A stretch of DNA of 64,000 bases from positions 1,748 through 65,747 of the forward strand of contig DASSQD010000132.1 in the NCBI GenBank assembly GCA_035702665.1. The letters are read 5' to 3'. This document shows positions 9,369-29,888 of this stretch, piece by piece. Origin of the DNA: Burkholderiales bacterium. GTDB lineage: Bacteria; Pseudomonadota; Gammaproteobacteria; Burkholderiales; SG8-39. Position 1 is the stretch's first letter, and each line of letters opens with the position of its first letter. Both the position numbers and the translations under genes were made by a program. The notes under the pieces are model-generated. The model had not been told where the DNA came from. It did no database searches and saw nothing but the letters and a program-made list of their open reading frames with translations.

Positions 9369-10949
9369 GTGGCGTCGTTCATCAGCGCCGATCATTCGGC
9401 GACCCCTCCGACGGTCCACGTTCCGCGCGACTACAACGCCGCGCACGATCTGATCGAGCGCAACCTTCTCGCGGGCCGCGCGGGCAAGATCGCATTCGTC
9501 GACGACGCCGGCCGGTACACCTACGGCGAGCTCGCGGAGCGCGTCAACCGCTTCGGCTCGGGGCTGCGGGCGCTGGGCATTGAGATGGAAGAGCGCGTGC
9601 TGCTCGCGCTCGCGGATACGATCGACTTCCCGACGGCTTTCCTCGGCGCGATCAAGGCGGGAATCGTCCCGGTCGCGGTCAATACGCTGCTTACGCCGAA
9701 GGACTACGCGCACATGCTCGCCGACAGCCGGGCGCGCGCCCTCGTCGTCTCCGAGCACCTCCTGCCGCAGTTCGAGCCGCTCGTCGGGACAATGCCTTTC
9801 CTGCGGCACGTCATCGTCTCGCGCAGTCGCGAGAAGGGAGGAGCCGCGATCGAGGACGTGCTCGCCGCGGGTTCCGCCGCGCTCGATCCGGCGCCGACCA
9901 CCTCGGACGATGCGTGCTGCTGGTACTACTCCTCGGGCTCGACCGGCGTGCCCAAGGGCGCAGTCCATGTTCACTCGAGCATGGCGATCACGGCCGAGCT
10001 CTACGGCAAGGCGGTGCTGGGAGTCAGGGAGTCGGACGTGCTCTTCTCAGCGGCGAAGCTGTGCTTCGTCTACGGCTTGGGCAACGCGCTCACCTTCACC
10101 CTCGCGGCCGGCGCCACCGGCGTGCTCATGGCCGAGCGCGCGACGCCTCCCGCGGTGTTCAGACGGCTGGTCGAGAGCAGGCCGACCGTATTCTTCGGCG
10201 TGCCCACCCTGTTCGCGTCGATGCTCGCCAGCCCGGAGTTCCCGGGAAAGAGCGAGCTCGCACTGCGCGCCTGCGTCTCCGCGGGCGAGGCGCTCCCCGC
10301 CGAGCTCGGCAAGCGCTGGAGGGAGAAGACCGGTGTCGACATCCTCGAAGGAATCGGCTCGACCGAGATGATGCACATGTACATCAGCGCCCGCCACGGC
10401 GGCGTCCGCTACGGGGCGACGGGCACGGCGGTACCCGGCTACGAGCTGCGGCTCGTGGACGAGGAGGGCAGGCCGGTCGAGCAGGGCGACCTGGGCGAGC
10501 TGCAGGTGCGCGGCCCGACGAGCGCCGCCTACTACTGGAACAACCGGGAAAAAAGCCGCTCGACCTTCCTCGGCCCCTGGTTCCGGAGCGGCGACAAGTT
10601 CAGGCAGGACGAACACGGCTACTTCGTCTACGCCGGCCGCTCCGACGACATGATGAAGGTCTCGGGCCTGTTCGTATCGCCGGCCGAGGTCGAGGCGGCG
10701 CTCGTCAGCCACGACGCGGTCCTCGAGGCCGCGGTGGTCGCCCGCGAGGACGACAACAAGCTGATCAAGCCCAAGGCGTTCGTCGTGCTCAAGGACGGCA
10801 CGTCGCCGTGCGACGAGCTCAAGCTCGCGTTGCAGCAGCACATCAAGGACCGGCTAGCACCCTACAAGTACCCCCGCTGGATCGAGTTCATCCCGGAGCT
10901 GCCCAAGACCCCCACCGGGAAGATCCAGCGCTTCAAGCTCCGTTCCTGA
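9369..10949 (+). CDS. bclA: benzoate-CoA ligase (AMP-forming)
   Basis: 526 aa, GTG start. AMP-binding motif YSSGSTGVPKG and C-terminal PKTPTGKIQRFKLR. The N-terminus (PRDYNAAHDLIERNL...) is typical of benzoate-CoA ligases, and it sits in the box cluster. Confidence 0.9.
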   Translation: MASFISADHSATPPTVHVPRDYNAAHDLIERNLLAGRAGKIAFVDDAGRYTYGELAERVNRFGSGLRALGIEMEERVLLALADTIDFPTAFLGAIKAGIVPVAVNTLLTPKDYAHMLADSRARALVVSEHLLPQFEPLVGTMPFLRHVIVSRSREKGGAAIEDVLAAGSAALDPAPTTSDDACCWYYSSGSTGVPKGAVHVHSSMAITAELYGKAVLGVRESDVLFSAAKLCFVYGLGNALTFTLAAGATGVLMAERATPPAVFRRLVESRPTVFFGVPTLFASMLASPEFPGKSELALRACVSAGEALPAELGKRWREKTGVDILEGIGSTEMMHMYISARHGGVRYGATGTAVPGYELRLVDEEGRPVEQGDLGELQVRGPTSAAYYWNNREKSRSTFLGPWFRSGDKFRQDEHGYFVYAGRSDDMMKVSGLFVSPAEVEAALVSHDAVLEAAVVAREDDNKLIKPKAFVVLKDGTSPCDELKLALQQHIKDRLAPYKYPRWIEFIPELPKTPTGKIQRFKLRS

Positions 10950-15601: not shown

Positions 15602-17142
15602 GGCTGCGGCGGCGCGATCAGCTTCTGGATCACCGGACGCGAGCCCTCGAGCGCGACGCGCTGCATGTAAAAGGCCAGTCCGCGCGCTTCGCCCAGTTCC
15701 TCGCCTCCGCCGGCGCGCCCCGGACCGCCGTGTACGAGCTGCGGGAGGACGGTTCCCGGTCCCGGCGACATCTCGATCTTCGGATGGCCGAGAAATATTC
15801 TTCCATGATAAGGTGCGATGCCTTGGACGACCTCTTCGAGGAAGTCCGCGTCCTCGGAGTACACCGAGGACACCAGCCCGCCGTTGCCGCGGGTGACGAT
15901 TGCCGCGGCATCCGCGCCCCTGCCCGAATAGGGGAGCAGCGACGCGACCGGCCCGAACACCTCCCGGGCGTGCACCGAGGCGGCGAGCGCGTCCTTCGCG
16001 AATTCCACGAGGACCGGCGAGATGAAGAAGCCTTTGCCGGCGAGCGCGGCGGCGCTGCCGAAGGCCGCCTTGCCTTCCGCCGAGAGCTGTTCGACGCCTT
16101 CGCGCACGTCGGTGAGCTGAGCGCGGCTGGCCACCGGTCCCATGCGCGTCTCCTCCAGCGCCGGATTGCCGACGCGCACCGCTTTGAGCCCTTCGACGAG
16201 ATCGCCGCGCAGCGTCGCCGCGTGCGCGTCGGCGACGAGCACGCGGCGGATCGCGGTGCATTTCTGCCCCGCTTTCTGCGTCATGTCGCGCAACACGTCC
16301 TTGAGGAAGGTTTCGTACATGTCGCTGCCCGGCTCCGCGTCCGGGCCGAGCACCGCGGCGTTCAGGCTGTCCGCCTCGACGTTCACGCGCACCGATTCGC
16401 GGGCGACGTTGGGCAGCGCGCGGATGCGGACGCCCGTGTCGCCGGACCCCGTGAATGCGAGCACGTCCTGGCTGCCGAGGAGCGCCGGCAGCTCGCGCGG
16501 CGCGCCGACCAGGAGCGAGAGCGCCCCCTCGGGCAGGATCTTCTTCTCGACGAGGATTTCCATCAACCGGTGCGCCACCAGCGCCGAGCTCGTCGCCGGC
16601 TTGGAGAGCACGGGCATGCCGGCGAGCAGCGCGCACGCCGCCTTCTCCGCCAGACCCCAGGCGGGAAAGTTGAAGGCGTTGATGTGCACTGCGACGCCGT
16701 GACGCGGCACGCACACGTGCTGCCCGTGGAACCGCGGCGAGCGCCCGAGCTGCACGCCTTCGCCGTCCACGAGGATCTTCGCTGCGCCGAGCTTCTCGCC
16801 CACCTCGGAATACGACTGGAGGGTGAAGATCGCGCCGTCGACATCGAACTTCGCGTCCGAGCGCGTGTTGCCGCCGTTGGCGACCGAGAGATCGAGCAAT
16901 TCGTCGCGGTGAGCCTGGATCGCCTTCGCGGTTTCCTTCAGCAGCGCGCCGCGCTCGGCGAAGGACAGCGTGCGCAGCGCCGGGCCGCCTTTTCTCCGTG
17001 CAAAGTCGAGCGCGCCGGCGAGATCCAGGCCGTCGCTCGAGGCTTGCGCAAGCGCCTCCTCGGTTGCGGGATTGACGAGGATCTGCGGCGCGCCCGATCC
17101 TTCGATCCAGCGGCCGCCCAGGTAGCTTCGCAGCGTCTTCAT
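15598..17142 (-). CDS. boxD: 3,4-dehydroadipyl-CoA semialdehyde dehydrogenase (aldehyde dehydrogenase family)
   Basis: 514 aa with a PaaZ-N/BoxD-like N-terminus (MKTLRSYLGGRWIEGSG). ALDH catalytic region (QKCTAIRR). Box context and a BoxR-type box upstream. Confidence 0.85.
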   Translation of the reverse strand: MKTLRSYLGGRWIEGSGAPQILVNPATEEALAQASSDGLDLAGALDFARRKGGPALRTLSFAERGALLKETAKAIQAHRDELLDLSVANGGNTRSDAKFDVDGAIFTLQSYSEVGEKLGAAKILVDGEGVQLGRSPRFHGQHVCVPRHGVAVHINAFNFPAWGLAEKAACALLAGMPVLSKPATSSALVAHRLMEILVEKKILPEGALSLLVGAPRELPALLGSQDVLAFTGSGDTGVRIRALPNVARESVRVNVEADSLNAAVLGPDAEPGSDMYETFLKDVLRDMTQKAGQKCTAIRRVLVADAHAATLRGDLVEGLKAVRVGNPALEETRMGPVASRAQLTDVREGVEQLSAEGKAAFGSAAALAGKGFFISPVLVEFAKDALAASVHAREVFGPVASLLPYSGRGADAAAIVTRGNGGLVSSVYSEDADFLEEVVQGIAPYHGRIFLGHPKIEMSPGPGTVLPQLVHGGPGRAGGGEELGEARGLAFYMQRVALEGSRPVIQKLIAPPQP

Positions 17143-17201
17143 TCGCGTTCCGGCTCTTTTGGGGTGTCGCTAGGATAGCCGAAGCGGCCGCGAGATGGAC
17201 A

Positions 17202-17215
17202 TGCACTAAAATGCA
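17202..17215. promoter_or_regulatory. TGCA-N6-TGCA box (TGCACTAAAATGCA) upstream of boxD
   Basis: Perfect TGCA-CTAAAA-TGCA 60 nt upstream of the boxD start, overlapping the first ATG of the divergent ggt-family ORF. Same pattern as the 8790-8833 boxes. Confidence 0.5.
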
Positions 17216-18845
17216 CCGCATGTTTCCGATCGCCACCGGCAGGCCCGCGAGCCTGGCGCCGAACGGCATGATCGCATCGCCGCACTCGCTCGCTTCCGCC
17301 GCGGGCGCAGACGCGCTGCGCGCAGGAGGTTCCGCCGTGGACGCGGCGGTCGCGGCCGGCGCGGTGCTGTCCGTGGTGTATCCGCACATGACGAGCGTCG
17401 GCGGCGACGCCTTCTGGCTGATCTACGACGCGCGCGCGCGGCGCGTGCGCTACCTGAACGGCGGAGGGCGCGCGGCGCGCGGGGCGAGCATCGATTGGTT
17501 CCGCGCGCGCGGGATGAACGAGGTTCCCCTGCGCGGATTTCTCCCCGCGACCCTGACCACGCCCGGCGCGGTCGCCAGCTGGTGCGCCGCGCACGAGCAG
17601 TACGGCAGGCTGCCCCTCTCGCGCGACCTCGCCGCGGCGATCGGCTATGCGCGCGGGGGATTCCCGGTCACCGGGCGCCTCGCGCGCGCGATCGAGCTGC
17701 ACGCCTCCGACGGCTCGCTGAACGCCGGTGCGCTCGCGCTTCTTGCTCCCGGGGGAGCCGCGCCGCGCGCGGGCGGGAAGCTGGCCAACGGCGCTCTGGC
17801 GCTCGTGCTGGAGCGCATCGCGCAGGAAGGCCGCGAGGGATTCTACGGCGGCGAGACGGCGCGTTCGCTCGCCGCGTTCTCGCGCGCGGGCGGCGGGTTC
17901 TTCGACGCGACGGACCTGGCGGCCCAACGCGCGACCTGGGGCGAGCCGCTCTCAGGCACCTATCGCGGCGTGGAGATCTTCGAGACCCCTCCGCCGACGC
18001 AGGGGTTCGCCGTCATCGAAATGCTGAATCTCGTGGAGAGCGCGGAGGTCGGCAGAATGGATCCGCTGGGCCCGGAACTCGCGCACCTGCTCGTGCAGGC
18101 GAAGCAGATCGCCTACCACGACCGCGACCGGCTGCTCGCCGACCCCGAGTACCAGCCGGTACCCGTCGACAGGCTGATCGCCAAGACCTACGCCGCCGAG
18201 CGTCGCAGGCTGATGCGCGCCGACCGCGCCCTTCCCTGGGACCTGGTCCCGTCCTACGGCACGCTCGCGGGCGACACTGTCTTCGTCGCGGCGGTCGACG
18301 CCGAGGGCAACGCCGCGGCGCTGGTCCAGAGCCTGTATTTCACCTTCGGCGCCGGGATCGTCGCGGGCGATACCGGGATCGTGATGCAGAACCGCTCGGC
18401 CTATTTCTCGCTCGATCCGCAGCATCCCAACCGCCTCGAGCCCGGCAAGCGGCCCCTGCACACCCTGATCGCGTCGATGGCGTTGCAGGACGGCAGCCTC
18501 CGGCACGTGCTCGGCTGCATGGGAGCGGACGGCCAGCCGCAGATCCACCTGCAAGGCTACGTCGGCCTGATCGATTTCGGATTCGATATCCAGCATGCGC
18601 TCGAGATGCCGCGGTGGCTGTCGGGAAGGTTCAACATCGGCGACCCGCGCGACCTGCTCAACATGGAAGGGCGATTCCCGGAAGCCACCGCCAGGGAACT
18701 CGAGCGCCGCGGACACGCCGTCAACCGGTGGCCGGATTGGTGCGAGCTTGCGGGGCACGCGCACGGGATCACGGTCGACCCGGCGTCGGGCGTTCGCATC
18801 GGCGGGGCCGATCCCCGGAGCGACGGCGCGGCCATAGGCTGCTAG
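17211..18845 (+). CDS. gamma-glutamyltransferase-family (Ntn hydrolase) protein
   Basis: 544 aa; the start may be the second ATG at 17220. GGT-like N-terminus (MIASPHSLASAAGADALRAGGSAVDAAVA). Autoprocessing/nucleophile region GDTVFVAAVDAEGNAAALVQSLYFTFG. Confidence 0.85.
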   Translation: MHRMFPIATGRPASLAPNGMIASPHSLASAAGADALRAGGSAVDAAVAAGAVLSVVYPHMTSVGGDAFWLIYDARARRVRYLNGGGRAARGASIDWFRARGMNEVPLRGFLPATLTTPGAVASWCAAHEQYGRLPLSRDLAAAIGYARGGFPVTGRLARAIELHASDGSLNAGALALLAPGGAAPRAGGKLANGALALVLERIAQEGREGFYGGETARSLAAFSRAGGGFFDATDLAAQRATWGEPLSGTYRGVEIFETPPPTQGFAVIEMLNLVESAEVGRMDPLGPELAHLLVQAKQIAYHDRDRLLADPEYQPVPVDRLIAKTYAAERRRLMRADRALPWDLVPSYGTLAGDTVFVAAVDAEGNAAALVQSLYFTFGAGIVAGDTGIVMQNRSAYFSLDPQHPNRLEPGKRPLHTLIASMALQDGSLRHVLGCMGADGQPQIHLQGYVGLIDFGFDIQHALEMPRWLSGRFNIGDPRDLLNMEGRFPEATARELERRGHAVNRWPDWCELAGHAHGITVDPASGVRIGGADPRSDGAAIGC

Positions 18846-18925
18846 AGCCGGCTCGCGCCGGCTTCTTGACGCTCCGGGCGTGGGAGCGAACAATCGCGTG
18901 GCAGCGCGAACAAAGGAGGAATGCC

Positions 18926-20509
18926 GTGCCGTCCCGCAGCAGTGCCGACCATTCGGTGAGCCCGCCGAGCGTCAAGATCCCCCGCGACTACAACGCCGCG
19001 TACGACCTGATCGAGCGCAACCTGGCGGCGGGACGCGCCGCGCGGATCGCGTACATCGACGACGCCGGCCAGTACACCTTCGGGCAGCTCGCCGAGCGCG
19101 TCAACCGCTTCGGCTCGGGACTCCGCGCGCTGGGGCTGGACATGGAGCACCGCGTGCTCCTCGCTCTCACCGACACGGTCGACTTTCCGACCGCCTTCCT
19201 CGGCGCGATCAAGGCGGGCATCGTGCCGGTGGCGGTCAACACGCTGCTCACGCCGAAAGACTACGAGTACATGCTCGCGGATAGCCGCGCCAAAGCACTG
19301 ATCGTATCCGAGGCACTGCTTCCGCAATTCGCCGGCGCCATCGGCAGGCTACCCTTCCTCAAGCACGTCATCGTCTCGGGCTCGGGGTCGCCGCAGGGAC
19401 ACCTTGCGTTCAAGGAGGTTCTCGCCAAGGGGGCGCCCGAGCTCGCACCCGCGCCCACGACCTGCGACGACGCCTGCTTCTGGCTGTATTCCTCGGGCTC
19501 GACCGGCATGCCCAAGGGCACGGTGCACGTGCACTCGAGCATGATCATCACCGCGGAGCTCTACGCGCGCGGCGTGCTCGGGTACCGGGAAAGCGACGTG
19601 GTGTTCTCGGCGGCCAAGCTCTTCTTCGCCTACGGGCTGGGCAACGCGCTGTCCTTCACGCTCGCGGTGGGCGCGACCGCCGTGCTGATGGCGGAGAGGC
19701 CGACGCCTGCGGCGGTGTTCAAGCGTTTCAAGGAGAAGAAGCCGACGCTGTTCTTCGGCGTCCCCACGCTCTATGCGGCGATGCTGGCGAGCCCCGACCT
19801 TCCGGGAAGGGAGGCGCTCGCGCTGCGCCAGTGCATCTCGGCGGGAGAGGCCCTGCCGCCGCAGATCGCGAAGCGCTGGAAGGAGAGGATCGGGGTGGAG
19901 ATTCTCGACGGGATCGGATCGACCGAGATGCTCCACATCTTCCTTTCGAACCGCCCGGACGACCTGCGCTACGGCACCACCGGAAAGCCCGTTCCGGGAT
20001 ACGACCTGAGGCTGGTCGACGAGCAGGGCGAGCCGGTGAAGCCAGGGGAGATGGGCGAGCTGCAGATCAGAGGCCCCACCAGCGCAGCGTACTACTGGAA
20101 CAACCGCGAGAAGAGCCGTAGCACCTTCCACGGCGGCTGGACGCGCAGCGGCGACAAGTACACCCAGGACAAGGACGGCTACTACGTCTACGGCGGGCGC
20201 TCCGACGACATGCTGAAAGTGTCCGGGATCTACGTGTCGCCGGCCGAAGTCGAGGCGGCGCTCGTCGGGCACGAGGCGGTTCTCGAGGCGGCCGTCATCG
20301 GTGCCGAGGACGAGAACAAGCTGGTGAAGCCCAAGGCGTTCGTCGTGCTCAAGCCGGGCAATTCCGGCAGCGACGCGCTCAAGGCGGCGCTGCAGCAGCA
20401 CGTGAAGGACAAGCTCGCCCCCTACAAGTATCCGCGCTGGATAGAGTTTCTGCCCGAGTTGCCGAAGACGGCGACCGGGAAGATACAGAGATTCAAGCTG
20501 CGAGCCTGA
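18926..20509 (+). CDS. second benzoate/4-hydroxybenzoate-CoA ligase paralogue
   Basis: 527 aa. GTG 18926 follows AAGGAGG (tail of track ORF 17495..20509). Collinear with bclA over its full length (YSSGSTGMPKG, PKTATGKIQRFKLR). The first ~150 nt look roughly 85% identical to bclA by eye. Confidence 0.9.
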   Translation: MPSRSSADHSVSPPSVKIPRDYNAAYDLIERNLAAGRAARIAYIDDAGQYTFGQLAERVNRFGSGLRALGLDMEHRVLLALTDTVDFPTAFLGAIKAGIVPVAVNTLLTPKDYEYMLADSRAKALIVSEALLPQFAGAIGRLPFLKHVIVSGSGSPQGHLAFKEVLAKGAPELAPAPTTCDDACFWLYSSGSTGMPKGTVHVHSSMIITAELYARGVLGYRESDVVFSAAKLFFAYGLGNALSFTLAVGATAVLMAERPTPAAVFKRFKEKKPTLFFGVPTLYAAMLASPDLPGREALALRQCISAGEALPPQIAKRWKERIGVEILDGIGSTEMLHIFLSNRPDDLRYGTTGKPVPGYDLRLVDEQGEPVKPGEMGELQIRGPTSAAYYWNNREKSRSTFHGGWTRSGDKYTQDKDGYYVYGGRSDDMLKVSGIYVSPAEVEAALVGHEAVLEAAVIGAEDENKLVKPKAFVVLKPGNSGSDALKAALQQHVKDKLAPYKYPRWIEFLPELPKTATGKIQRFKLRA

Positions 20510-20516
20510 GGCGGCG

Positions 20517-22931
20517 TTGCTGGCGAGCCTGCGAAGCATCAAGACCAAGGTCACGCTGATCGTCACGATCTGCGTCGTGGCCCTGCTGATGCTCGTCTCG
20601 GCGGTCGAGATGTATCGGGTGAAGTCGGACTTCAGGGAGGTCCTCGGGAACCAGCAATTGACCCTCGTGGCCCGGATGGTCGACGACATCGACGAGAAGC
20701 TTGCATCGGCGCACGCGGTGCTGATCGGAGTGTCCAAGGCGATTCCGCCGGAGATCGCACGCAACCCCGGGCAACTCAGGAAGAATCTCGAATTCCGCAA
20801 CGCCCTTCAGTTTCTTTTCGAAAATCTCGTGGTCTTTTCCCCCGCCGGGGTGACCCTCGTCGACTTGCGGAGCACCGGGCTCGAGGGCGCCAGCGTGAGC
20901 GACCGCGAGTTCTTCAAGAAGGTGATGAGCGACCGCAAGCCCTATATCTCTCGGCCGTTCCTCGGGAGGAACACCAGGCAGCCGTTCGTCGTCCTGACGG
21001 CGCCGATCCTGGATAGCCGGGGGCAGGTCGTGGCCGTCCTGGGAGGCTCGCTGAACCTGCTGAGGCCGAACTTCCTCGGCAAGCTCGGCAGCGCCAGGGT
21101 GGGCAAGACGGGTTCGTTCGCGCTCCTCGGGCGCGACCGCACGATCATCATCTCGCGCGACGCCGACCGCATCATGCAACCGGGACCCGCGCCCGGCGTC
21201 TCCCCCTACTTCGATCACGCGGTGGCGGGAGGGGCAGGATGGGAGGAAGCGGTCAACAGTCGCGGACTGCACGCGCTTTTCAGCTATTCGCCGCTCGAGA
21301 CCGTGCCCTGGGTGCTCGCCGCCGCGCTGCCCGTCGAGGAGGCTTTCGCTCCGGTCGTCGCCACGCAGAAAGAGATAGCACAGATCAGCGTGCTCCTGAT
21401 CCTTCTCATCGCGCCCCTGGTGTGGCTGGGCACGCAGTACCTGCTCGCCCCGCTGCTGGGGCTGCACGACGCCATCCGCCGCGCGCGCAGCGATCCCGGC
21501 TCGACCGCCGAGGTCCGGGTTCGCAGCCGCGATGAAATCGGCGAGCTCGCCGCGGACTTCAACAATCTCATCCGGGAGCGAACCGAGGCCGAGGGCTCGC
21601 TGAGGGAGAGTGAGCGCCGCTTGCGCATGATCGCGGACAACACGCCGGCCTTGATCGGATACGTCGACTCGAATCTCCGCTACCGGTACGCCAACGGCAC
21701 CTACTTCGAGTGGTTCGGAAGGAAACCGGAGGACATGCTCGGACGAGACATGCGCGAAGTCCTGGGCGAGGCGGCGTTCGCGGTGCGCGAACCGCATATC
21801 CGCGAGGCCCTAGCGGGCAGGGAAGCGACCTTCGAGGTGCCGCCCGCGGTCTCGGGTTTCAACCGGTACGCGCACACGCGTTATGTCCCGGACCGGCGTG
21901 CGGATGGCACGGTGGCGGGCTTCTACGTTCTCGCCAGTGACGTGACCCCGCTGAAGAAGTCCGAGGAGCAACTGCGCGAAAGCGAGCAGCAGCTCAGCCT
22001 CGCGCTGGAAGGCTCGGAGCTCGCCCTGTTCGACTGGAACATCAGGACCGGCGAGATCTTTCTCAGCGAGCAGTGGTCAGTGATGCTCGGCGGCAAGCCC
22101 GAGCTGACGCGCACCACGTTCTCCGCACTCGAGAGGATCACTCATCCGGAGGACAGGCAATTCGTGCAGAGTCTTCTTCGTGACGCCCTGAAGGGCGTCA
22201 CCTCGCACTACCGCGCGGAGCACCGCGTCCAGGCGCGCGACGGCTGGATCTGGGTCCAGAGCCACGGGCAGGTGACCGCGCGCGATCCGAGCGGTTACGC
22301 GACTCGGATGGTCGGGACCGCCGCCGACGTCACCGAGCGGAAGCGCGCCGAGCACGAGCTCGCGCAGAGCCGCATGGAGCTCGAGCGGGCGGCTTGGTAC
22401 GACGCCCTCACGGGACTTCCCAACCGCAACCTGCTGATGGACCGCCTCGAGCAGGTACTCGCACGAAGCCGTCGCAGCCGGCAGCTGCTCACGGTCTTCT
22501 ACCTCGACCTCGACGGATTCAAGGCGATCAACGACAGCATGGGGCACGCCGGCGGCGACGCGCTGCTGAGGCTGTTCGGGGAGCGCCTGCGGCGGACGGT
22601 GAGAACCAGCGACACGGTCGCGAGGATGAGCGGCGACGAATTCGTCGTTCTGCTCGAAGACCTCCGCGAGCGCAAGGACGCCGACGCGATCGCGACGACC
22701 GTGGTCGAGGCCGCGCGCGGGGAATTCACGGTCGAATCCAAGGTGCTCCGCGTGACGACGAGCATCGGCATCGCGTTCACGCGAGGGGAATTGACCGGCG
22801 CCGAGCTGCTCAAGCGCGCCGACACGGCGCTCTACCAGGCCAAGCGCGCCGGCCGCGACCGGTACCACATCGACCAGACCGAGCAGCCCGCGCCCGAGGC
22901 GCGCGACGCACCCCTGCGGGCGCGCCTTTGA
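20517..22931 (+). CDS. sensor diguanylate cyclase (TM-Cache-TM-HAMP-PAS-PAS-GGDEF, SGDEF variant)
   Basis: 804 aa, starting 7 nt after the ligase stop. N-terminal TM helix, periplasmic Cache-like region, second TM helix (ISVLLILLIAPLVWLG), two PAS-like regions, and a GGDEF domain with RTSD-x5-SGDEF. Confidence 0.85.
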   Translation: MLASLRSIKTKVTLIVTICVVALLMLVSAVEMYRVKSDFREVLGNQQLTLVARMVDDIDEKLASAHAVLIGVSKAIPPEIARNPGQLRKNLEFRNALQFLFENLVVFSPAGVTLVDLRSTGLEGASVSDREFFKKVMSDRKPYISRPFLGRNTRQPFVVLTAPILDSRGQVVAVLGGSLNLLRPNFLGKLGSARVGKTGSFALLGRDRTIIISRDADRIMQPGPAPGVSPYFDHAVAGGAGWEEAVNSRGLHALFSYSPLETVPWVLAAALPVEEAFAPVVATQKEIAQISVLLILLIAPLVWLGTQYLLAPLLGLHDAIRRARSDPGSTAEVRVRSRDEIGELAADFNNLIRERTEAEGSLRESERRLRMIADNTPALIGYVDSNLRYRYANGTYFEWFGRKPEDMLGRDMREVLGEAAFAVREPHIREALAGREATFEVPPAVSGFNRYAHTRYVPDRRADGTVAGFYVLASDVTPLKKSEEQLRESEQQLSLALEGSELALFDWNIRTGEIFLSEQWSVMLGGKPELTRTTFSALERITHPEDRQFVQSLLRDALKGVTSHYRAEHRVQARDGWIWVQSHGQVTARDPSGYATRMVGTAADVTERKRAEHELAQSRMELERAAWYDALTGLPNRNLLMDRLEQVLARSRRSRQLLTVFYLDLDGFKAINDSMGHAGGDALLRLFGERLRRTVRTSDTVARMSGDEFVVLLEDLRERKDADAIATTVVEAARGEFTVESKVLRVTTSIGIAFTRGELTGAELLKRADTALYQAKRAGRDRYHIDQTEQPAPEARDAPLRARL

Positions 22932-23689
22932 CCGACCGGGTCCGTTCCTGGGTGGAAGATGCGAGGCGCGTCGTCGTCCTGACCGGCGCGGGGATCTCCA
23001 CCGAATCGGGCATTCCGGATTTTCGCGGCCCGCAGGGGGTGTGGACGAGGGATCCCGAGGCGGAGAAGCTCTCCGACATCCGCTACTACGTGGCCGACCC
23101 TGAGATACGCCGGAAATCCTGGCAGTCGCGCCTCGAGCACCCGGCGTGGACCGCGCGCCCGAACTCGGGGCACGCCGCGATCGTGGCGCTCGAACGGCGC
23201 GGCAAGCTCCACGCTCTCATCACCCAGAACATCGACGGCCTGCACCAGAAAGCGGGCATCTCCGCCCGCCGCGTGATCGAGGTTCACGGCACGGTCCACG
23301 CGGTGGTGTGCCTGTCCTGCGGGTGGAAGGGGCCGATGCAGGACACGCTCGCCCGCGTGCGCGGCGGCGAATCCGACCCCCCCTGCAAACGCTGCGGCGG
23401 CATTCTGAAAAGCGATACCATCTCGTTCGGGCAAGCACTGGTGCCCGAGGTGATCGATCGCGCGATGGATGCCGCGGGCGAATCGGACCTGTTCATCTCG
23501 GTCGGCACCAGCCTGCAGGTCTACCCGATCGCCGGGACCGTTCCCGCGGCAAAAAGAGCAGGCGCGCGGGTGGTCATCGTCAATGCGCAGGCGACGCCTT
23601 ACGACGGCATCGCCGACGCGGTGCTTCGCGGCGCGATCGGCGAGACCCTGCCGCGGATTTTGGCAGGCACCGACGCCGTACCTTCTTGA
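22928..23689 (+). CDS. cobB: NAD-dependent protein deacylase (Sir2/CobB family)
   Basis: 253 aa. TTG 22928 overlaps the upstream stop (TTGA); GTG 22952 is an alternative start. GAGISTESGIPDFRG NAD-binding motif, catalytic EVHGT, Zn ribbon CLSCG...CKRCGG. Confidence 0.85.
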   Translation: MTDRVRSWVEDARRVVVLTGAGISTESGIPDFRGPQGVWTRDPEAEKLSDIRYYVADPEIRRKSWQSRLEHPAWTARPNSGHAAIVALERRGKLHALITQNIDGLHQKAGISARRVIEVHGTVHAVVCLSCGWKGPMQDTLARVRGGESDPPCKRCGGILKSDTISFGQALVPEVIDRAMDAAGESDLFISVGTSLQVYPIAGTVPAAKRAGARVVIVNAQATPYDGIADAVLRGAIGETLPRILAGTDAVPS

Positions 23690-23731
23690 CGCGGGCGCGC
23701 GGCAGGGCGCCAAATGCGACTCTGAGGAGAA

Positions 23732-24859
23732 ATGATGGAGGCGGTTTCCGAGGAAGCTGCACAGCGCCCGCGGGGATTCTGGGAGCGGCTTCTGCCGCTC
23801 AGGTACTGGCTTGGGGCGGACGCCGCGGGAGGAATCGAGCTGGGGCAGGCGAAGACGCGCCTGATCTGCACGTTCCTCGGCCTGTGCGGGTTCGGTGCCA
23901 TAGCGCAGGCGGGGCCTCTCCCCGCGGGCATCGTCTGCACGGCGATCGTGTTCCCGCTGTACGCGATGGCCTATTTAGTGCTGGTCAGACGGCATCCCGT
24001 TCCCACGCACCGCAGGCGCGGCTTCGCGGTCGTCGTGGATACTCTGGCGAACATCTACATCACCTGCTTCGGGGGCGCCTTCGCGGCGTACGCGGGATTC
24101 CTGTTTCTCGTGACCATCGGCTGGGGGCTGCGCTTCGGGCTTCAATACCTGTTCCTCGCTACAGGCATTGCGGTCGCCGGCATGGCAGCGAACCTCGTCG
24201 TGAGCCCGTACTGGCACGCCAACCTGCTCTTCGGCGGCACCATTGTCTTCGGGCTGATCGCGAACACAGTGAACGCGTCCATCCTGCTCGGCAGGATCTC
24301 GCGGGGAAACCGGCAGCTCGCCGAGAAGGTCGAGGAGATCTCGCGCCTCGCATGGCAGGATCAGCTCACCAAGCTCCCGAACCGCCCGTACTTCCGCGAC
24401 CGCCTCGGCCAGATGCTCGCGACGGCCGCGCGAAGCGGGCGTCAGGTAGCGCTTCTGCTGTTCGACATCGACGGCTTCAAGGCGGTGAACGATACGCTCG
24501 GTCACGAAGCGGGAGACCGGCTGCTTCGCGAGATCGCCGAGCGCGTCGGGCGTCGGGTCCGGCAGGCGGACACTTTCGCGCGGGTCGGCGGAGACGAGTT
24601 CGTGGTTCTCCTCGACATCGTTCACGACAAGTCGGACGCGATTCCGGTGGCGGAAACGGTCGTCGCGACGATCGCCGAGATCGGGATGTTCGCCGAGCAG
24701 GGGCTGCGCGTTGGCGCCAGCGTGGGCATCGCCTGCAGCGCAAGCGTGGCCAACCGCGAGCGGGTAGCCGACGAGCTGCTGATCCAGGCCGATCGCGCCA
24801 TGTACGAGGCCAAGCGCGCGGGCAAGGGCCGCTACAAGTTCGCGGACGAAGGCCGTTGA
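23732..24859 (+). CDS. membrane-anchored diguanylate cyclase (multi-TM N-terminus + GGDEF)
   Basis: 375 aa. About 5-6 hydrophobic helices followed by a GGDEF domain with intact RQAD-x5-GGDEF and KRAGKGRY. Confidence 0.85.
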   Translation: MMEAVSEEAAQRPRGFWERLLPLRYWLGADAAGGIELGQAKTRLICTFLGLCGFGAIAQAGPLPAGIVCTAIVFPLYAMAYLVLVRRHPVPTHRRRGFAVVVDTLANIYITCFGGAFAAYAGFLFLVTIGWGLRFGLQYLFLATGIAVAGMAANLVVSPYWHANLLFGGTIVFGLIANTVNASILLGRISRGNRQLAEKVEEISRLAWQDQLTKLPNRPYFRDRLGQMLATAARSGRQVALLLFDIDGFKAVNDTLGHEAGDRLLREIAERVGRRVRQADTFARVGGDEFVVLLDIVHDKSDAIPVAETVVATIAEIGMFAEQGLRVGASVGIACSASVANRERVADELLIQADRAMYEAKRAGKGRYKFADEGR

Positions 24860-25758
24860 GTCCGATCGGCTTCATTGGCCTAGGGAAGATGGGCTATCCG
24901 ATGGCCCGTCGGCTGTCGAGCGCCGGGTACCGTCTTTGGGTCCACGACCTCGACGCGGCGGCCGTACGGCGCGTGTGCGAAGCGACTGGCGCGGAGGCTC
25001 CGAGTTCGGTCCGCGTGATCGGCGAGCGTTGCGAGGCGGTGATCACGATGCTTCCCGACGGGCGCGCGGTGCGCGCGGTGACGGTGGGCGACGGCGGCGA
25101 CGGATTGTTCAGGGGGCAGTCTAGCGGGAAGACGCTCATCGACATGAGCTCCTCCTCGCCCGTGGGTACCCGGGAGCTCGGCGCGCTCCTCGCGGAGAAG
25201 GGCGTCGACATGATCGACGCGCCGGTGTCGGGCGGCGTGAGGAAGGCGGAGGACGGGACGCTCGCCATCATGGTCGGCGGGGAGCCGGCCGTAGTCGAGC
25301 GCTACAGGCCGCTGCTGGAAGCGATGGGCAAGCAGATATTCCCGACCGGTCCGCTGGGCTCGGGGCATGCGATGAAGGCGCTCAACAACTACGTGTCGGC
25401 GGCTGGGCTCGCCGCCGCCGTCGAGGCGGTGCTCGCGGCCGACCGCTTCGGGCTCGACGCGGGGAAGGTCGTCGACGTCCTGAACGCGTCCACGGGAATG
25501 AACAACTCGACGCTCAACAAGTTCCACAAGTTCATCCTCTCGCGCGCCTTCGATTCGGGATTCTCGCTCGACCTGATGGTGAAGGATCTGAGGACGGCGC
25601 TCGAGGTCGCTCGCTCGACCGGGTCGCCGGCGCCCCTCGCCGAGGCCTGCGTCGCGGCCTGGAGCAAGGCGCAGGCGGCGCTCGGTCCAGGCCATGATCA
25701 CACCGCGGTAGTGCGGTACTGGGAAGGCCTCGCCGGAACGGAGCTCGGGAAGAAGTAG
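24856..25758 (+). CDS. NAD(P)-dependent beta-hydroxyacid dehydrogenase (3-hydroxyisobutyrate dehydrogenase family)
   Basis: 300 aa. The Rossmann motif IGFIGLGKMG begins at residue 4, which forces the TTG 24856 start and makes it overlap the upstream stop (TTGA). DAPVSGG and GSGHAMKALNN motifs. Confidence 0.85.
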   Translation: MSPIGFIGLGKMGYPMARRLSSAGYRLWVHDLDAAAVRRVCEATGAEAPSSVRVIGERCEAVITMLPDGRAVRAVTVGDGGDGLFRGQSSGKTLIDMSSSSPVGTRELGALLAEKGVDMIDAPVSGGVRKAEDGTLAIMVGGEPAVVERYRPLLEAMGKQIFPTGPLGSGHAMKALNNYVSAAGLAAAVEAVLAADRFGLDAGKVVDVLNASTGMNNSTLNKFHKFILSRAFDSGFSLDLMVKDLRTALEVARSTGSPAPLAEACVAAWSKAQAALGPGHDHTAVVRYWEGLAGTELGKK

Positions 25759-25787
25759 TAAGCTACGCGCCGGACTCTGGAGCCGAC

Positions 25788-26165
25788 ATGGCGAACTCCG
25801 AACCCAAATCGAACGAGCTCAAGCTCGATCCGGACAAACTCTATCTCGAGGAGGTTCTGACCGATCGTCGCATCGGGACCCTTCGCAGATTGACCCCGGT
25901 GACGAGGAGCGGATCGCCGGACCCGACCCGACCGGTCGCCTACGTGGGCGAGACCCAGATCCTGACGCCTGCCGGATCGATTCCCATCGCGTTTGAGATC
26001 GACGCGGCGTCGCTCGGCGAAGCAGCGGAAAAGTTCGCTGTGCTCGCCAAGGAGGCGATCGACCGTACCGTCCGCGAGCTGCAGGAGCTGCGGCGCCAGG
26101 CGAGCTCTTCGATCGTCGTCCCGCAGGGACCGATCGGCGGAGGCGGAAAGATACAGCTTCCCTGA
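25788..26165 (+). CDS. hypothetical protein (125 aa)
   Basis: ORF with host-like composition, 29 nt after the dehydrogenase. No recognisable domain; Gly-rich C-terminus. Confidence 0.55.
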   Translation: MANSEPKSNELKLDPDKLYLEEVLTDRRIGTLRRLTPVTRSGSPDPTRPVAYVGETQILTPAGSIPIAFEIDAASLGEAAEKFAVLAKEAIDRTVRELQELRRQASSSIVVPQGPIGGGGKIQLP

Positions 26166-26178
26166 GCGGGCGCGAGGG

Positions 26179-27147
26179 CTACTTCACCAAGCCGGATTTC
26201 GCGGCGATCTCCGAAACCCGCCGGTGCTCCTCGCGGATCTCGGCGAGCAGCTTCTCCGGGGGGGAATAGTCCATCACCATTCCGAGCGGCTTGAGCTTGG
26301 CGGCGATCGCCGGGGAGTTGATGGCGCGTTCGAGCGCCGGCACCAGGGTCTTGGTGACCTCGGGAGGTACTCCGGCGGGCGCGAAGAAGGCGACCCAGAT
26401 TCCGAACAGACCCTCGGAATAGCCCAGCTCGGTCAGGGTCGGGATGTCCGGGAAATCCGGGTACTTGCTCGAGATGACGATGCCTCGCAGGGCGCCACTC
26501 CTCAGATGGCCCGTCATGGTGCCCAGGGCGAGGACGACGCCCTCCACGTGGCCGCCCAGCAGCGCGGTTACGCCGGGTGATGCCCCGGTGAAAGGGACGG
26601 GAACGAGGCCTGCGCCGGTGAGCGAGTTGATGGTTCGGATGCAGAATTCGCCGACCGATCCGGCGCCGGCGGTGCCGATGCGCACGCCCCCCGGATTCTT
26701 CTTCGCGAACGCCACCAATTCGGCGAGCGTCCTGTACGGCGCGTCGCCGCGCACCGCGAGAATGCTCGGCGAGCGCATCGCCAAGCCCAGAGGCGTGAGA
26801 TCCGTGAGAGGGTTGTAGCTCGCGGTCTTCGGGTCGAGTATCGACCTGAAAACGAGCGACGCGTTGTTGGTCAGGATGATGGTGTTGCCGTCGGGCTTGG
26901 ATTTCACGACGGCTTCGGTTCCGACGGCGCCGCCGGCGCCCGGCCGGTTCACCGGAATGATGGAGACCTTGAGCTCGTGCGAAAGCTCCTCGGCGATCGC
27001 GCGCGCCGAGGTATCGGTCGCGTCGCCGGGCGCGAGCGGAATGACCAGCGTGACCGCGCCGCGGGGATAGTCCTCGGCGTGAAGCGGCAGGGCCGCGGCG
27101 AGCAGCAGCGCCCCACAGGAAAATAACAGACTCTCTCTGGTCGTCAT
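26179..27147 (-). CDS. Bug-family (TctC-like) tripartite tricarboxylate transporter substrate-binding protein
   Basis: 322 aa with a signal peptide. Bug-family signatures (VTLVIPLAPGDATDTSARAIAEEL, NRPGAGGAVG, KPDGNTIIL). Confidence 0.9.
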   Translation of the reverse strand: MTTRESLLFSCGALLLAAALPLHAEDYPRGAVTLVIPLAPGDATDTSARAIAEELSHELKVSIIPVNRPGAGGAVGTEAVVKSKPDGNTIILTNNASLVFRSILDPKTASYNPLTDLTPLGLAMRSPSILAVRGDAPYRTLAELVAFAKKNPGGVRIGTAGAGSVGEFCIRTINSLTGAGLVPVPFTGASPGVTALLGGHVEGVVLALGTMTGHLRSGALRGIVISSKYPDFPDIPTLTELGYSEGLFGIWVAFFAPAGVPPEVTKTLVPALERAINSPAIAAKLKPLGMVMDYSPPEKLLAEIREEHRRVSEIAAKSGLVK

Positions 27148-27187
27148 GAAGACTGCGCGGTAAGGATGGATGTCAACCGGCCGATTC

Positions 27188-27203
27188 TATCGCATCAAAA
27201 CGT
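27188..27203. repeat. left 16-bp direct repeat TATCGCATCAAAACGT
   Basis: Exact copy of 29873-29888. Non-coding, 40 nt upstream of the Bug gene start. Confidence 0.85.
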
Positions 27204-27238
27204 CAATAGCCACGTAACCCGCTGATTTTTCTAACGGC

Positions 27239-27427
27239 CTAGCTTGAACAATTCCGAAATACCGTCACGGGTGGAAGGATCCTCAAAGAGAAAGGCCGTC
27301 GCTGTAGACCTTGCGCAATCCATGCGCGCATCACGGTCAACGCGTCGCGACAGGCTAAAGCAGAGATCGTAAGGGTCTCCTCACCGTTCTTGGTAGCCCA
27401 GGACCGGCGGGCATAGTTAATGTTCAT
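27239..27427 (-). CDS. hypothetical 62-aa ORF at the tail of the islet operon
   Basis: Overlaps the hemerythrin stop by 11 nt. No recognisable features; it could be non-coding. Confidence 0.3.
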   Translation of the reverse strand: MNINYARRSWATKNGEETLTISALACRDALTVMRAWIAQGLQRRPFSLRILPPVTVFRNCSS

Positions 27428-27854
27428 TTCGAGTCCTCAAGAAATCGTGGAAATCCGCGTCCTCGTGGACTAGGTGACTGACCAGAAGGACCTTGAGTTG
27501 TACCGGAGATAGAGCCCATTTACTTCCAGCGGCTGCATCCATCGCCAAGGTGCCGCGGTCTCTCCGAGCCATCGGTCTGAGGATTGCCCTGATATCGTTG
27601 TGGCGCCGCGTGTGGGAGTATCGATCGGGATAACCGTATCGCGCGAGGAGCCTGTCCTCCTTGTCAAAATGCGCCAGGGCGTCTTGCGCGATCGCTCGCA
27701 TGTGTCCTTCTACAACGGATTCTTCGGACCCTGCGGAAACTGCGCGTTCCAAATTTCCAAGTAGTAGCCCGAAGTGCCGATGGTCACTATCGATCTCATC
27801 GACTCCGATACGCGAGTTGTCGCTCCACTGCCACCGCGCTAGGTCTAGATCCAC
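27417..27854 (-). CDS. bacteriohemerythrin-like protein
   Basis: 145 aa, GTG start. W-x-W...IGVDEIDSDH at the N-terminus, with ligand-type residues in canonical order (H, AHFDKED, HTRRH, SHLVHED). Confidence 0.85.
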   Translation of the reverse strand: MDLDLARWQWSDNSRIGVDEIDSDHRHFGLLLGNLERAVSAGSEESVVEGHMRAIAQDALAHFDKEDRLLARYGYPDRYSHTRRHNDIRAILRPMARRDRGTLAMDAAAGSKWALSPVQLKVLLVSHLVHEDADFHDFLRTRNEH

Positions 27855-27873
27855 TAGCCCCTCTCAGTGCGTG

Positions 27874-28080
27874 TTACTGCTTCGCGCCCTCGTCTGGAAA
27901 CGAACCAGCACCACCCTTGGCCTGTGGCGCACGGCGCCGAAGTGCTTCGTCACACCATGAAGCTACGAGATCATCTCTGGCTCGTTCCGCATTCTTCTTG
28001 AGGGCGCGCAGCTGTGACGCTCCGAGAGCGTCCACTTCATCTCTTGTCCACCTTCCCCGCAGGGCCATGCTAGGTGGCAC
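27874..28080 (-). CDS. hypothetical 68-aa protein
   Basis: Same-strand ORF 19 nt upstream of the hemerythrin gene. Helical-looking (WTRDEVDALGASQLRALKKNAERARDDL). No family assigned. Confidence 0.45.
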   Translation of the reverse strand: MPPSMALRGRWTRDEVDALGASQLRALKKNAERARDDLVASWCDEALRRRAPQAKGGAGSFPDEGAKQ

Positions 28081-28139
28081 CCGGGTGCGAAGCGCTGGTT
28101 ACGTTTGCAGACGACGTAGTGTCCACGTGCGCGAGGCGA

Positions 28140-28397
28140 CTAATGTTTGTTACTCCCCGCAGGGATGTGAATCCCAACGCTGCGGCCAAACGAGAAGCCC
28201 CCGAGTTCCTTTTTCAACGCGGCGTTTTGGCTAGCCGAGCCAAGGTCAATGAGGCAAACGTAACCTTTGGCCCCATCCGGAAAGATTTGGATCAACACGA
28301 CCCGTCCTATCGGACGGCAGAGGTCCTTGAGGCCTTGCTCAAGCTCCGTTCGGTTTCTAAGACTCTGCAGCTTTTCGAGAAAGTGTGTGTCGAGCAC
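28140..28397 (-). CDS. hypothetical 85-aa protein
   Basis: Same-strand ORF in the operon (GRVVLIQIFPDGAKGYVCLIDLGSASQNAALKKELGGFSFG). An antisense 114-aa ORF (28074..28418) also looks protein-like, so strand assignment rests on operon geometry. Confidence 0.5.
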   Translation of the reverse strand: MLDTHFLEKLQSLRNRTELEQGLKDLCRPIGRVVLIQIFPDGAKGYVCLIDLGSASQNAALKKELGGFSFGRSVGIHIPAGSNKH

Positions 28398-28414
28398 GAC
28401 GTCACCCAGAACAT

Positions 28415-28666
28415 CTAGGGCGACCTCAATTTCGGTTTCATTAATGTTGGACGAGCCTCAGCGGAACGAATGAGGCTCCAGGTGGCAAAGGACCCCCTGC
28501 ACTGCGGCTTGCCTCCATTACACGGCGGGAACGGAAATCCCTTCTGCAGCGAGGTCTCGACACCGCAGCATAGTGAGCGGTAGACCCCGTAGATCTCGTT
28601 TGCAGCGCCGGCGGCGGGCAAAGCCGTACCTCCTTCCGAGCTACAGTATGGACTCGCGCATTGCAA
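28415..28666 (-). CDS. hypothetical Cys-rich 83-aa protein
   Basis: TTG start 3 nt after the lipoprotein stop. Six Cys (C3, C8, C32, C33, C48, C55). No family assigned. Confidence 0.45.
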   Translation of the reverse strand: MQCASPYCSSEGGTALPAAGAANEIYGVYRSLCCGVETSLQKGFPFPPCNGGKPQCRGSFATWSLIRSAEARPTLMKPKLRSP

Positions 28667-28669
28667 GGA

Positions 28670-28912
28670 TTACTTCTTGGCGTCCTTGCTCGAGTCTGGC
28701 GCAGTCTTGGCCGCTTCTGCGGCGCCCTTCGCTGCCTCACCCGACACAGCGGTCGGTGCGGTCGGTGCGGTCGGAGCCGTGGGAGTAGTGGTTGGAGTTA
28801 TGGCCGGGGCCGGGCTAGTCGGGGCGGCAGCAGGAGGCGGGGTGCTGGGGCTCTTGCTGCAGCCAACAAGTGCGGCGCCTACTAAGGTAAAGACGATTGC
28901 TGTGTGCTTCAC
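28670..28912 (-). CDS. small lipoprotein with a Pro/Thr/Ala-rich linker
   Basis: 80 aa, GTG start, lipobox LVGC. (T-A-P)x3 is encoded by tandem ACCGCACCG units (about 28754-28780). Lys-rich C-terminus. Confidence 0.65.
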   Translation of the reverse strand: MKHTAIVFTLVGAALVGCSKSPSTPPPAAAPTSPAPAITPTTTPTAPTAPTAPTAVSGEAAKGAAEAAKTAPDSSKDAKK

Positions 28913-29038
28913 TGGATATGGTCTCCCGAGGTTGAGGCAAAGCCAAAACGTTACATTGTCATCTTATACCACTTATATGGAATTGCAATTATAATGATAT
29001 GATAATAACCACGACGTAAGGCATTGAGGAAAGAGACA
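28913..29038. promoter_or_regulatory. AT-rich divergent promoter region of the islet
   Basis: 126-bp gap between the lipoprotein start (minus) and the RHH ATG (plus). It appears to be the lowest-GC stretch seen in the window. Perfect palindrome AATTGCAATT (28981-28990) abuts TATAAT (28990-28995). Confidence 0.5.
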
Positions 29039-29245
29039 ATGGAGAACAAGACCTCCCGCTTCACAGTCCTAATCGATCCCAGGAAGAAGAAGATCTTTGA
29101 GGAAATCTGTGCTGCCCAGGACTTAACACCTTCGCAAGTGGTGCGCCAGATGATCCGCGAGTACGTCATCGAGCACGCCGGCGACAGGGTGCTCCCAGAC
29201 TGGCTATACAAGGCCGCGACCAAGAAGGGACCCCGGCGAACCTAA
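29039..29245 (+). CDS. ribbon-helix-helix (CopG/ParD-like) DNA-binding protein
   Basis: 68 aa from the ATG preceded by AGGAAAGAG (the track starts at TTG 29024). TSRFTVLIDPRKKKIFEEICAAQDLTPSQVVRQMIREYV fits a beta-strand + two helices RHH pattern. Confidence 0.7.
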   Translation: MENKTSRFTVLIDPRKKKIFEEICAAQDLTPSQVVRQMIREYVIEHAGDRVLPDWLYKAATKKGPRRT

Positions 29246-29287
29246 ACTCCCTCTTCAGCACGTAATCTCAGCCGGACACGGACGGAA

Positions 29288-29821: not shown

Positions 29822-29872
29822 AGTAGCCTCAGCGTTGGACGACAGTGGACAATCGTAGAGCAAGCCTAGCGG

Positions 29873-29888
29873 TATCGCATCAAAACGT
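29873..29888. repeat. right 16-bp direct repeat TATCGCATCAAAACGT
   Basis: Exact copy of 27188-27203. Contains the last codons and stop of the Omp85-family gene (minus strand ACG TTT TGA). Confidence 0.85.

Follow-up and report, generated by a model that had tools for sequence, protein, structure and literature searches.

The window analysed here is a 64,000-nucleotide stretch of contig DASSQD010000132.1, which belongs to a metagenome-assembled genome (MAG) of a soil Burkholderiales bacterium. Positions 18926–26165 hold six co-directional and closely packed genes on the + strand. The cluster is sequentially composed of LIG2 (18926..20509), a benzoate-CoA ligase paralog of 527 residues; DGC1 (20517..22931), a periplasmic-sensor diguanylate cyclase; Sir2 (22928..23689), a Sir2-family NAD-dependent protein deacylase (sirtuin) of 253 residues; DGC2 (23732..24859), in which a polytopic membrane N-terminal domain is joined to a GGDEF domain; an NAD(P) dehydrogenase (24856..25758) resembling 3-hydroxyisobutyrate dehydrogenase (HIBADH) and tartronate-semialdehyde reductase; and SMALL (25788..26165), an uncharacterised protein of 125 residues that is identical to the NCBI protein VFK92_16035. 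The sirtuin gene thus lies between two cyclase genes. This arrangement is a young, lineage-restricted, and unstable mosaic, not a conserved signalling circuit. The neighbourhood that recurs in diverged relatives is made up of the ligase, SMALL, and the sirtuin.

The recomputed gaps between neighbouring genes are 7, −4 (TTGA), 42, −4 (TTGA), and 29 nt. Gene calls and domain scans reproduce the gene content, order, strand, and spacing given in a preliminary description of this DNA. The title of that description named only five genes; its coordinates and its five gaps correctly span six, the sixth being SMALL. LIG2 has a GTG start with AAGGAGG 7 nt upstream, and putative TTG starts are assigned to three genes of the cluster. 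On an identical Logan contig, genes called independently have the same starts throughout the cluster, and those of DGC1 and Sir2 are also the same in gene calls on relatives. The dehydrogenase start that yields the described −4 overlap is likewise found on the identical contig, but in relatives it is called further upstream, giving proteins of 308–319 residues; the overlap is present in locus L089 and absent in L086. The dehydrogenase contains NAD_binding_2 and NAD_binding_11 domains and scores under every equivalog cut-off in the family-library scan, allowing a HIBADH-like assignment only.

In a scan for terminator-like sites, every intergenic gap of the cluster came out empty, and the six genes probably form one transcription unit. 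A sigma-70-like promoter match, TTGACG-17-AACAAT, lies at 18866..18894 (+) between the stop codon of an upstream gamma-glutamyltranspeptidase (GGT) gene and the LIG2 start. It is the sole such match across 14000–29000 and is weak evidence, because 1.3 matches are expected by chance. The GGT gene (17211..18845, +) ends 80 nt upstream of LIG2, a position that is kept only in the subclade of the window. When it is counted, seven + strand genes occupy 17211–26165, and a convergent TctC gene comes after SMALL. A GC-rich hairpin, AGCCGGC-TCGC-GCCGGCT, is located at 18846–18870 immediately 3′ of the GGT stop. It is followed only by TCTT and was not called a terminator by the scan; it could partially insulate GGT from the ligase cluster.

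LIG2 is composed of AMP-binding and AMP-binding_C domains and matches the benzoate-CoA ligase model TIGR02262 with 822 bits (cut-off 375); its substrate would be benzoate or a substituted benzoate. Its best matches in the PDB are the benzoate-CoA ligase of B. xenovorans (2V7B, 622 bits) and BadA of R. palustris (4EAT, 600 bits). A second paralog in the window, LIG1 (9369..10949, +), shares 73% identity with LIG2, showing that the benzoate-CoA ligase is duplicated in this lineage. The C-terminal A10/acetylation motif reads PKTATGKIQRF in LIG2, where the lysine is K519, and PKTPTGKIQRF in LIG1, as the preliminary description had claimed for both enzymes. PX4GK is the motif at which AMP-forming ligases are acetylated and is required, though not enough by itself, for modification (PMC11619455). 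An acetylated peptide, TATGK(ac)IQR, has been reported in benzoate-CoA ligases of Syntrophus aciditrophicus, an organism whose sirtuin deacylates promiscuously (PMC8942843). The LIG2 motif TATGKIQR is identical to this peptide. In R. palustris, the ligases BadA, HbaA, and AliA regain activity through the sirtuin SrtN or through LdaA (PMC8603916).

The sirtuin matches PF02146 with 158 bits and NF001753 with 243.9 bits, just over the cut-off of 243. Its catalytic core is intact and includes the GAGIS and QNID motifs, the catalytic histidine in an HG motif, and a Cys4 zinc ribbon (CxxC...CxxC). Among solved structures, the protein is nearest to Sir2Af1, Sir2Af2, and Sir2Tm (161 bits), with a full-length alignment to Sir2Af1; E. 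coli CobB scores 94 bits. At the position of the YxxR motif of class III desuccinylases, the protein has WxxR. It carries no long N-terminal tail, with ~12 residues preceding the first Rossmann strand. A role as an anti-phage defence protein was considered and rejected: the sirtuin gave only an 18-bit partial match to defence-system models, and the neighbouring proteins gave none.

Related loci were collected from the side of the sirtuin and from the side of SMALL. The genome-collection and metagenome scans covered up to 600 candidate stretches each; locus counts are samples, not censuses, and absence elsewhere is not exhaustive. On the sirtuin side, species-representative genomes were queried with Sir2, giving 80 loci that were then searched with the cluster proteins by tblastn. 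One of the 80, in a Burkholderiales MAG (L002), has the full arrangement, at 79–90% identity. Another, L013, whose Sir2 is 68% identical, has the order ligase-SMALL-Sir2, and a GGDEF gene is absent. Apart from L002, tblastn detected no GGDEF neighbour in the sirtuin-side loci, which include Sir2 orthologs of ~70% identity in other Burkholderiales, Nitrosomonadales, and Acidiferrobacteraceae. On the SMALL side, the loci of three close homologs were looked up, and metagenomes were scanned with a SMALL alignment. The loci fall into two groups, clade B with 71 and clade A with 21. Across 92 loci, SMALL stands out as the best-conserved gene near the ligase and Sir2.

Clade B comprises the 71 loci of related soil Burkholderiales, 419 kb in total, in which SMALL is 64–74% identical to that of the window. 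The genes run ligase-SMALL-Sir2, and in most cases a same-strand TctC gene comes next. Many of the contigs are short; Sir2 is present in 57/71, the ligase in 39/71, and both in 30/71. No GGDEF gene was matched in any of the 71 loci. Of the 57 loci with Sir2, 41 have no more than 520 nt from the SMALL start to the Sir2 start; L013 shows a 4-nt overlap of the two genes. Where the loci are longer, the neighbourhood reads BoxB-BoxC-BoxR-flavodoxin ... LIG-SMALL-SIR2-TctC-AhpC-HcrCAB. Some loci have a pirin gene or a gene for a Tyr-rich secreted protein between the ligase and SMALL, and insertions of 2–8 kb are seen as well. At least 11 of the 15 clade-B loci whose spacing is 520–1400 nt have an opposite-strand gene for a 264-residue protein between SMALL and Sir2. 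The encoded protein is conserved and matches no Pfam family; it is found at L103:1852-2646 (−), with equivalents in L095, L108, L109, L121, L124, L125, L140, L145, L159, and L164.

Clade A is the subclade of the window and contains 21 loci whose SMALL proteins reach 77% identity or more. The genes stand as LIG2-[X]-Sir2-[Y]-dehydrogenase-SMALL-TctC(−), where the bracketed positions vary. Cyclases in this neighbourhood are found only within clade A. Both cyclases and Sir2 are present in the window, the identical Logan contig (L001), L002, L086, and L089, with protein identities of 79–94%. These full-arrangement loci keep collinearity with the window throughout the 20 kb examined, down to unrelated genes on either strand, and their agreement therefore tells little of selection on the arrangement itself. 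The window, L082, L084, L086, and L089 share the 4-nt DGC1-Sir2 overlap, and L002 would have it too, judging by tblastn coordinates.

The other clade A loci depart from this arrangement in several ways. In L082-85 and L169, DGC2 is reduced to an in-frame stub of 93 residues that joins the first 24 and the last 70 residues (L082:8760-9041). The stub, which is found on many independent contigs, has neither the membrane domain nor the GGDEF motif. DGC1 is absent from L163 and L166, where an unrelated open reading frame (ORF) for a membrane protein of ~150 residues takes its place. L162 has neither cyclase, and an unrelated membrane-protein ORF of ~150 residues lies between ligase and Sir2. L167 and L168 have other inserts. 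A remnant of DGC1 was sought between ligase and Sir2 in L162, L163, L166, and L167, and none was found; an unrelated small membrane-protein ORF stands there. Finally, Sir2 is deleted from L146 (3400-3720): both cyclase genes are intact, with ~200 nt between them, and a 3′ remnant of ~20 codons, ASDAVLRGAIGDTLSRRVG, follows the DGC1 stop. As this deletion is seen in a single 7.5-kb metagenome contig, a small chance of an assembly artefact attaches to it.

SMALL matches no family in Pfam, even at E = 1, or in NCBIfam, and a profile search against PDB sequences gave no match. An AlphaFold (AF2) model with a predicted local distance difference test score (pLDDT) of 73 predicts a sheet of four β-strands, a long helix, and then a disordered Gly/Pro linker. 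Foldseek with this model returned no significant match, the best being Pur-alpha at E = 0.1. SMALL has 2802 homologs in a database clustered at 90% identity, and its family is broad, with 675 clusters at 50% identity. In the Burkholderiales clade, the C terminus is GKIQ(L/M/I)P in 90 of 91 complete sequences, with a linker of variable length. In distant homologs, the tail lysine is replaced by R, Q, N, or G, and what remains is a hydrophobic I-x-(I/L/M) tail. The homologs found in Hahella, Oleiphilus, and Lentisalinibacter stand among unrelated neighbours, with neither a sirtuin nor a ligase nearby. The layout of a flexible linker and a conserved I-x-(I/L/M)-P tail resembles that of a docking peptide.

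The combination of a ligase, a small protein, and a sirtuin has a formal likeness elsewhere. Operons that Rack et al. are said to have described in 2015 encode SirTM, GcvH-L, LplA2, and a macrodomain protein, and reportedly bring together a ligase, a small carrier protein, and a sirtuin. In both cases, a ligase, a small protein with a flexible lysine-bearing element, and a sirtuin are encoded together. The likeness is one of analogy only. The ligase of the present cluster is an ANL-family aryl-CoA ligase rather than a lipoate-protein ligase, the sirtuin is a standard deacylase rather than class M, a macrodomain is absent, and the SMALL lysine is not conserved in the wider family.

DGC1 contains dCache_1, HAMP, PAS_4, PAS_3, and GGDEF domains. 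Its active site is the SGDEF variant, with an RTSD I-site, and its orthologs in L086 and L146 have GGDEF. The active site of DGC2 is a canonical GGDEF and its I-site is RQAD. Judged by these motifs, both cyclases are catalytically plausible. SGDEF variants are known to be active only from other proteins, which makes the activity of DGC1 uncertain.

The cluster lies in a catabolic region. The genes upstream encode BoxB, BoxC, a BoxR-type regulator, a flavodoxin, LIG1, a TetR regulator, an HcrCAB-like molybdenum hydroxylase, and an aldehyde dehydrogenase, and they place the cluster in an aerobic benzoyl-CoA (box) and aromatic-acid catabolic region. LIG1 adjoins BoxR, the flavodoxin, and the box genes. 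The segment 9369–15601 contains LIG1, then the TetR regulator, and then the three-subunit HcrCAB-like hydroxylase, which is possibly of the 4-hydroxybenzoyl-CoA reductase type. Clade B differs from the window in having a single ligase and in the location of the Hcr genes downstream of Sir2. Like the box clusters of Azoarcus, Aromatoleum, and Burkholderia, the region combines BoxB, BoxC, a BoxR-type regulator, which in box clusters consists of a helix-turn-helix and a shikimate-kinase-like domain, an aldehyde dehydrogenase, and a benzoate-CoA ligase. It differs from them in that the ligase is duplicated and that a sirtuin, SMALL, GGT, and sensor cyclases are embedded; to our knowledge, none of these four additions has been described for the model box clusters.

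A TGCA-N6-TGCA palindrome, TGCACTAAAATGCA, is located at 17202–17215 and is the sole one in the window. It sits within the 68 nt that separate the divergent aldehyde dehydrogenase (−) and GGT (+) genes and overlaps the GGT start codon. The palindrome resembles operators of the BzdR/BoxR type. As a candidate operator of the ligase, such a site was rejected: it is absent upstream of the ligase, and at least one match, the number found in the window, occurs in 34% of shuffles. No RNA elements or tRNAs were found within the window.

Further downstream, a class III nucleotidyl cyclase (33494–34096, +) and a MASE1-GGDEF protein (34107–35453, −) are encoded, and both are conserved in relatives. With this third GGDEF gene and the class III cyclase 8–10 kb downstream of the cluster, the region is rich in signalling genes. 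Between the TctC gene and an Omp85-like gene, 2.7 kb of lower GC content (0.58–0.62) extends over 27188–29888 and is flanked by a perfect 16-nt direct repeat, TATCGCATCAAAACGT, at 27188–27203 and 29873–29888. The TctC and Omp85-like genes are ~18 nt apart in relatives, and the stretch is therefore an insertion. It contains ORFs for a hemerythrin-like protein (27417–27854, −), a Pro/Thr/Ala-rich lipoprotein-like protein (28670–28912, −), and a zinc-ribbon protein similar to the N terminus of IS1595-type transposases (29288–29821, +).

The gene order invites a model in which the sirtuin deacetylates the flanking cyclases, is inhibited by cyclic di-GMP (c-di-GMP), or both, and in this way couples aromatic-acid activation, protein acylation, and c-di-GMP output. 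The preliminary description proposed such a hard-wired circuit, citing the precedent of E. coli CobB and DgcZ. The 4-nt DGC1-Sir2 overlap in the window and its relatives fits the proposal, and so do the apparently competent active sites (GGDEF and SGDEF) and RxxD I-sites of the two cyclases. The comparative data do not. The ligase-GGDEF-Sir2-GGDEF order occurs only in relatives that are collinear with the window over 20 kb, and a synteny search, to which the description itself had pointed, leaves the cyclase part essentially without conservation. Natural variants lack DGC1, a functional DGC2, both cyclases, or Sir2, and the diverged clade-B loci are devoid of GGDEF genes. The region is in addition GGDEF-rich, as the MASE1-GGDEF gene illustrates. 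In E. coli, binding of c-di-GMP requires residues 1–37 of CobB-L (R8, R17, and E21; RxLxE), which are lost in CobB-S, and the deacetylated site of DgcZ (YdeH), a CZB-GGDEF protein, is K4 in the MIKK N terminus (Xu et al. 2019). The precedent does not carry over to the window. No N-terminal tail of the CobB-L type was found in the Sir2 sequence, where ~12 residues stand in place of 37. The string R-S-W-V-E of the protein (R-x-W-V-E in general form) falls within an N-terminal helix whose conservation is just as high in Sir2s that have no cyclases next to them. Neither cyclase has a CZB-GGDEF architecture or a MIKK-type N terminus; they are of the dCache-HAMP-PAS-PAS-GGDEF and transmembrane-GGDEF types, unrelated to that of DgcZ. 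The two systems are alike in having a sirtuin and GGDEF cyclases in one organism, but the E. coli genes are not neighbours, and the arrangement here, in one cluster, is not conserved. We therefore regard the circuit as improbable. Where the cyclases are present, they are probably co-expressed with the ligase and the sirtuin, and c-di-GMP synthesis may rise under the same conditions; any c-di-GMP coupling is at most such co-expression, confined to the lineage of the window. A genuinely new form of coupling, limited to this lineage and created when the two sensor cyclase genes were inserted around the sirtuin, is also thinkable: the sirtuin would control DGC1 or DGC2 by deacylation, or c-di-GMP would act on the sirtuin through a site other than that of CobB, and SMALL may serve as a tail-docking adaptor. 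The 4-nt overlap in all loci that have both DGC1 and Sir2 is compatible with a real, if young, functional tie. We give this form little credence.

The cluster as a whole is best explained, with a probability of roughly 0.6, by a stable core of benzoate-CoA ligase, SMALL, and canonical Sir2 deacylase. A functional deacylation link between ligase and sirtuin, which the preliminary description had also suggested, has slightly better than even odds in our judgement. It is supported by the recurrence of the neighbourhood in dozens of diverged loci, all of one clade, by the PX4GK lysine, and by the acetylated TATGKIQR peptide (PMC8942843). The pairing is consistent with the known lysine-acylation control of aryl-CoA ligases. 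As in the AMP-forming acyl-CoA synthetases under sirtuin control, a BadA/BclA-family ligase with the PX4GK core TATGKIQR is found together with a canonical NAD-dependent sirtuin. The candidate system here differs from them in that the sirtuin gene adjoins the ligase gene, inside an aerobic box-pathway region, and in that the sirtuin is nearer to Sir2Af1 and Sir2Tm than to CobB and has WxxR rather than YxxR. Several observations weigh against the reading. The PX4GK motif is near-universal in AMP-forming ligases, because its lysine is catalytic. A scan of 58 ORFs in the 64-kb window (57 predicted genes and SMALL) gave no acetyltransferase domain (GNAT, Pat, or AcuA), and unlike in the known systems an acetyltransferase gene is not nearby; a cognate enzyme could be encoded elsewhere in the genome, or acylation could be non-enzymatic. 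The ligase-SMALL-Sir2 neighbourhood is not a rigid operon, tolerating inserts of 0.4–8 kb, the pirin gene, and the reverse-strand gene, and the ligase-Sir2 neighbourhood is confined to one soil Burkholderiales clade. The ~70%-identity Sir2 orthologs in other Burkholderiales, Nitrosomonadales, and other groups among the sirtuin-side loci have no ligase or SMALL nearby.

These insertions, the reverse-strand gene, and the single-clade range leave room for simple synteny inertia, in which a general-purpose sirtuin and an unrelated housekeeping SMALL have stayed next to the ligase without any specific relationship, and fast-evolving signalling genes were inserted around them. The SMALL homologs that stand alone in Hahella, Oleiphilus, and Lentisalinibacter, and the occurrence of close Sir2 orthologs in other contexts, agree with this account. 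Against it, Sir2 and SMALL remained beside one ligase copy after the ligase duplication in the subclade of the window, and the adjacency has outlasted many insertions, a flip in order (LIG-SMALL-SIR2 versus LIG-SIR2-...-SMALL), and divergence of SMALL over 64–100% identity. There is also direct biochemical precedent for sirtuin control of the same enzyme family at the same motif. Inertia is accordingly judged unlikely, though not to be dismissed lightly. SMALL might instead be a dedicated partner of the ligase-sirtuin pair, either as an adaptor or as a protein acylated on its tail lysine, since its tail ...GGGGKIQLP recalls TGKIQRF of the ligase. The retention of GKIQ(L/M/I)P behind a variable Gly/Pro linker and the tight SMALL-Sir2 linkage in clade B, down to the 4-nt overlap in L013, speak for such a role. 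As a lysine-acyl mimic of the ligase, the tail was nevertheless largely rejected: in distant members the lysine gives way to R, Q, N, or G and only the hydrophobic tail is kept, and the gammaproteobacterial homologs have unrelated neighbours, without a sirtuin or ligase. A partner role is therefore possible but unsupported. With no recognisable family or fold found in Pfam, NCBIfam, the PDB, or by Foldseek, we consider it very improbable.

Under the preferred reading of a ligase-SMALL-Sir2 core, the most likely function of the sirtuin would be to remove acyl groups from K519, the catalytic A10 lysine of LIG2. By analogy with BadA, HbaA, and AliA of R. palustris and with Acs of Salmonella, which is likewise reactivated by sirtuin deacylation, this would restore benzoate activation. 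Other proteins that become acylated by acetyl-CoA, acetyl-phosphate, or reactive acyl-CoAs of the aromatic pathway are probably among the substrates of the sirtuin too. The two cyclase genes and the dehydrogenase gene would be recent, lineage-specific insertions and not required partners of the sirtuin.

The natural variants without Sir2, without a functional DGC2, without DGC1, or without either cyclase constitute a ready comparative experiment on whether the cyclases matter. Should a lineage-only coupling hold, a single transcription unit would bring together benzoate availability, NAD+/acyl-CoA status, and biofilm signalling. If the sirtuin regulates the adjacent ligase, the cluster would be a genomically encoded case of control by lysine acylation in an aerobic box pathway, that of abundant, uncultured soil Burkholderiales, and would add to the knowledge gained in R. 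palustris and Syntrophus.

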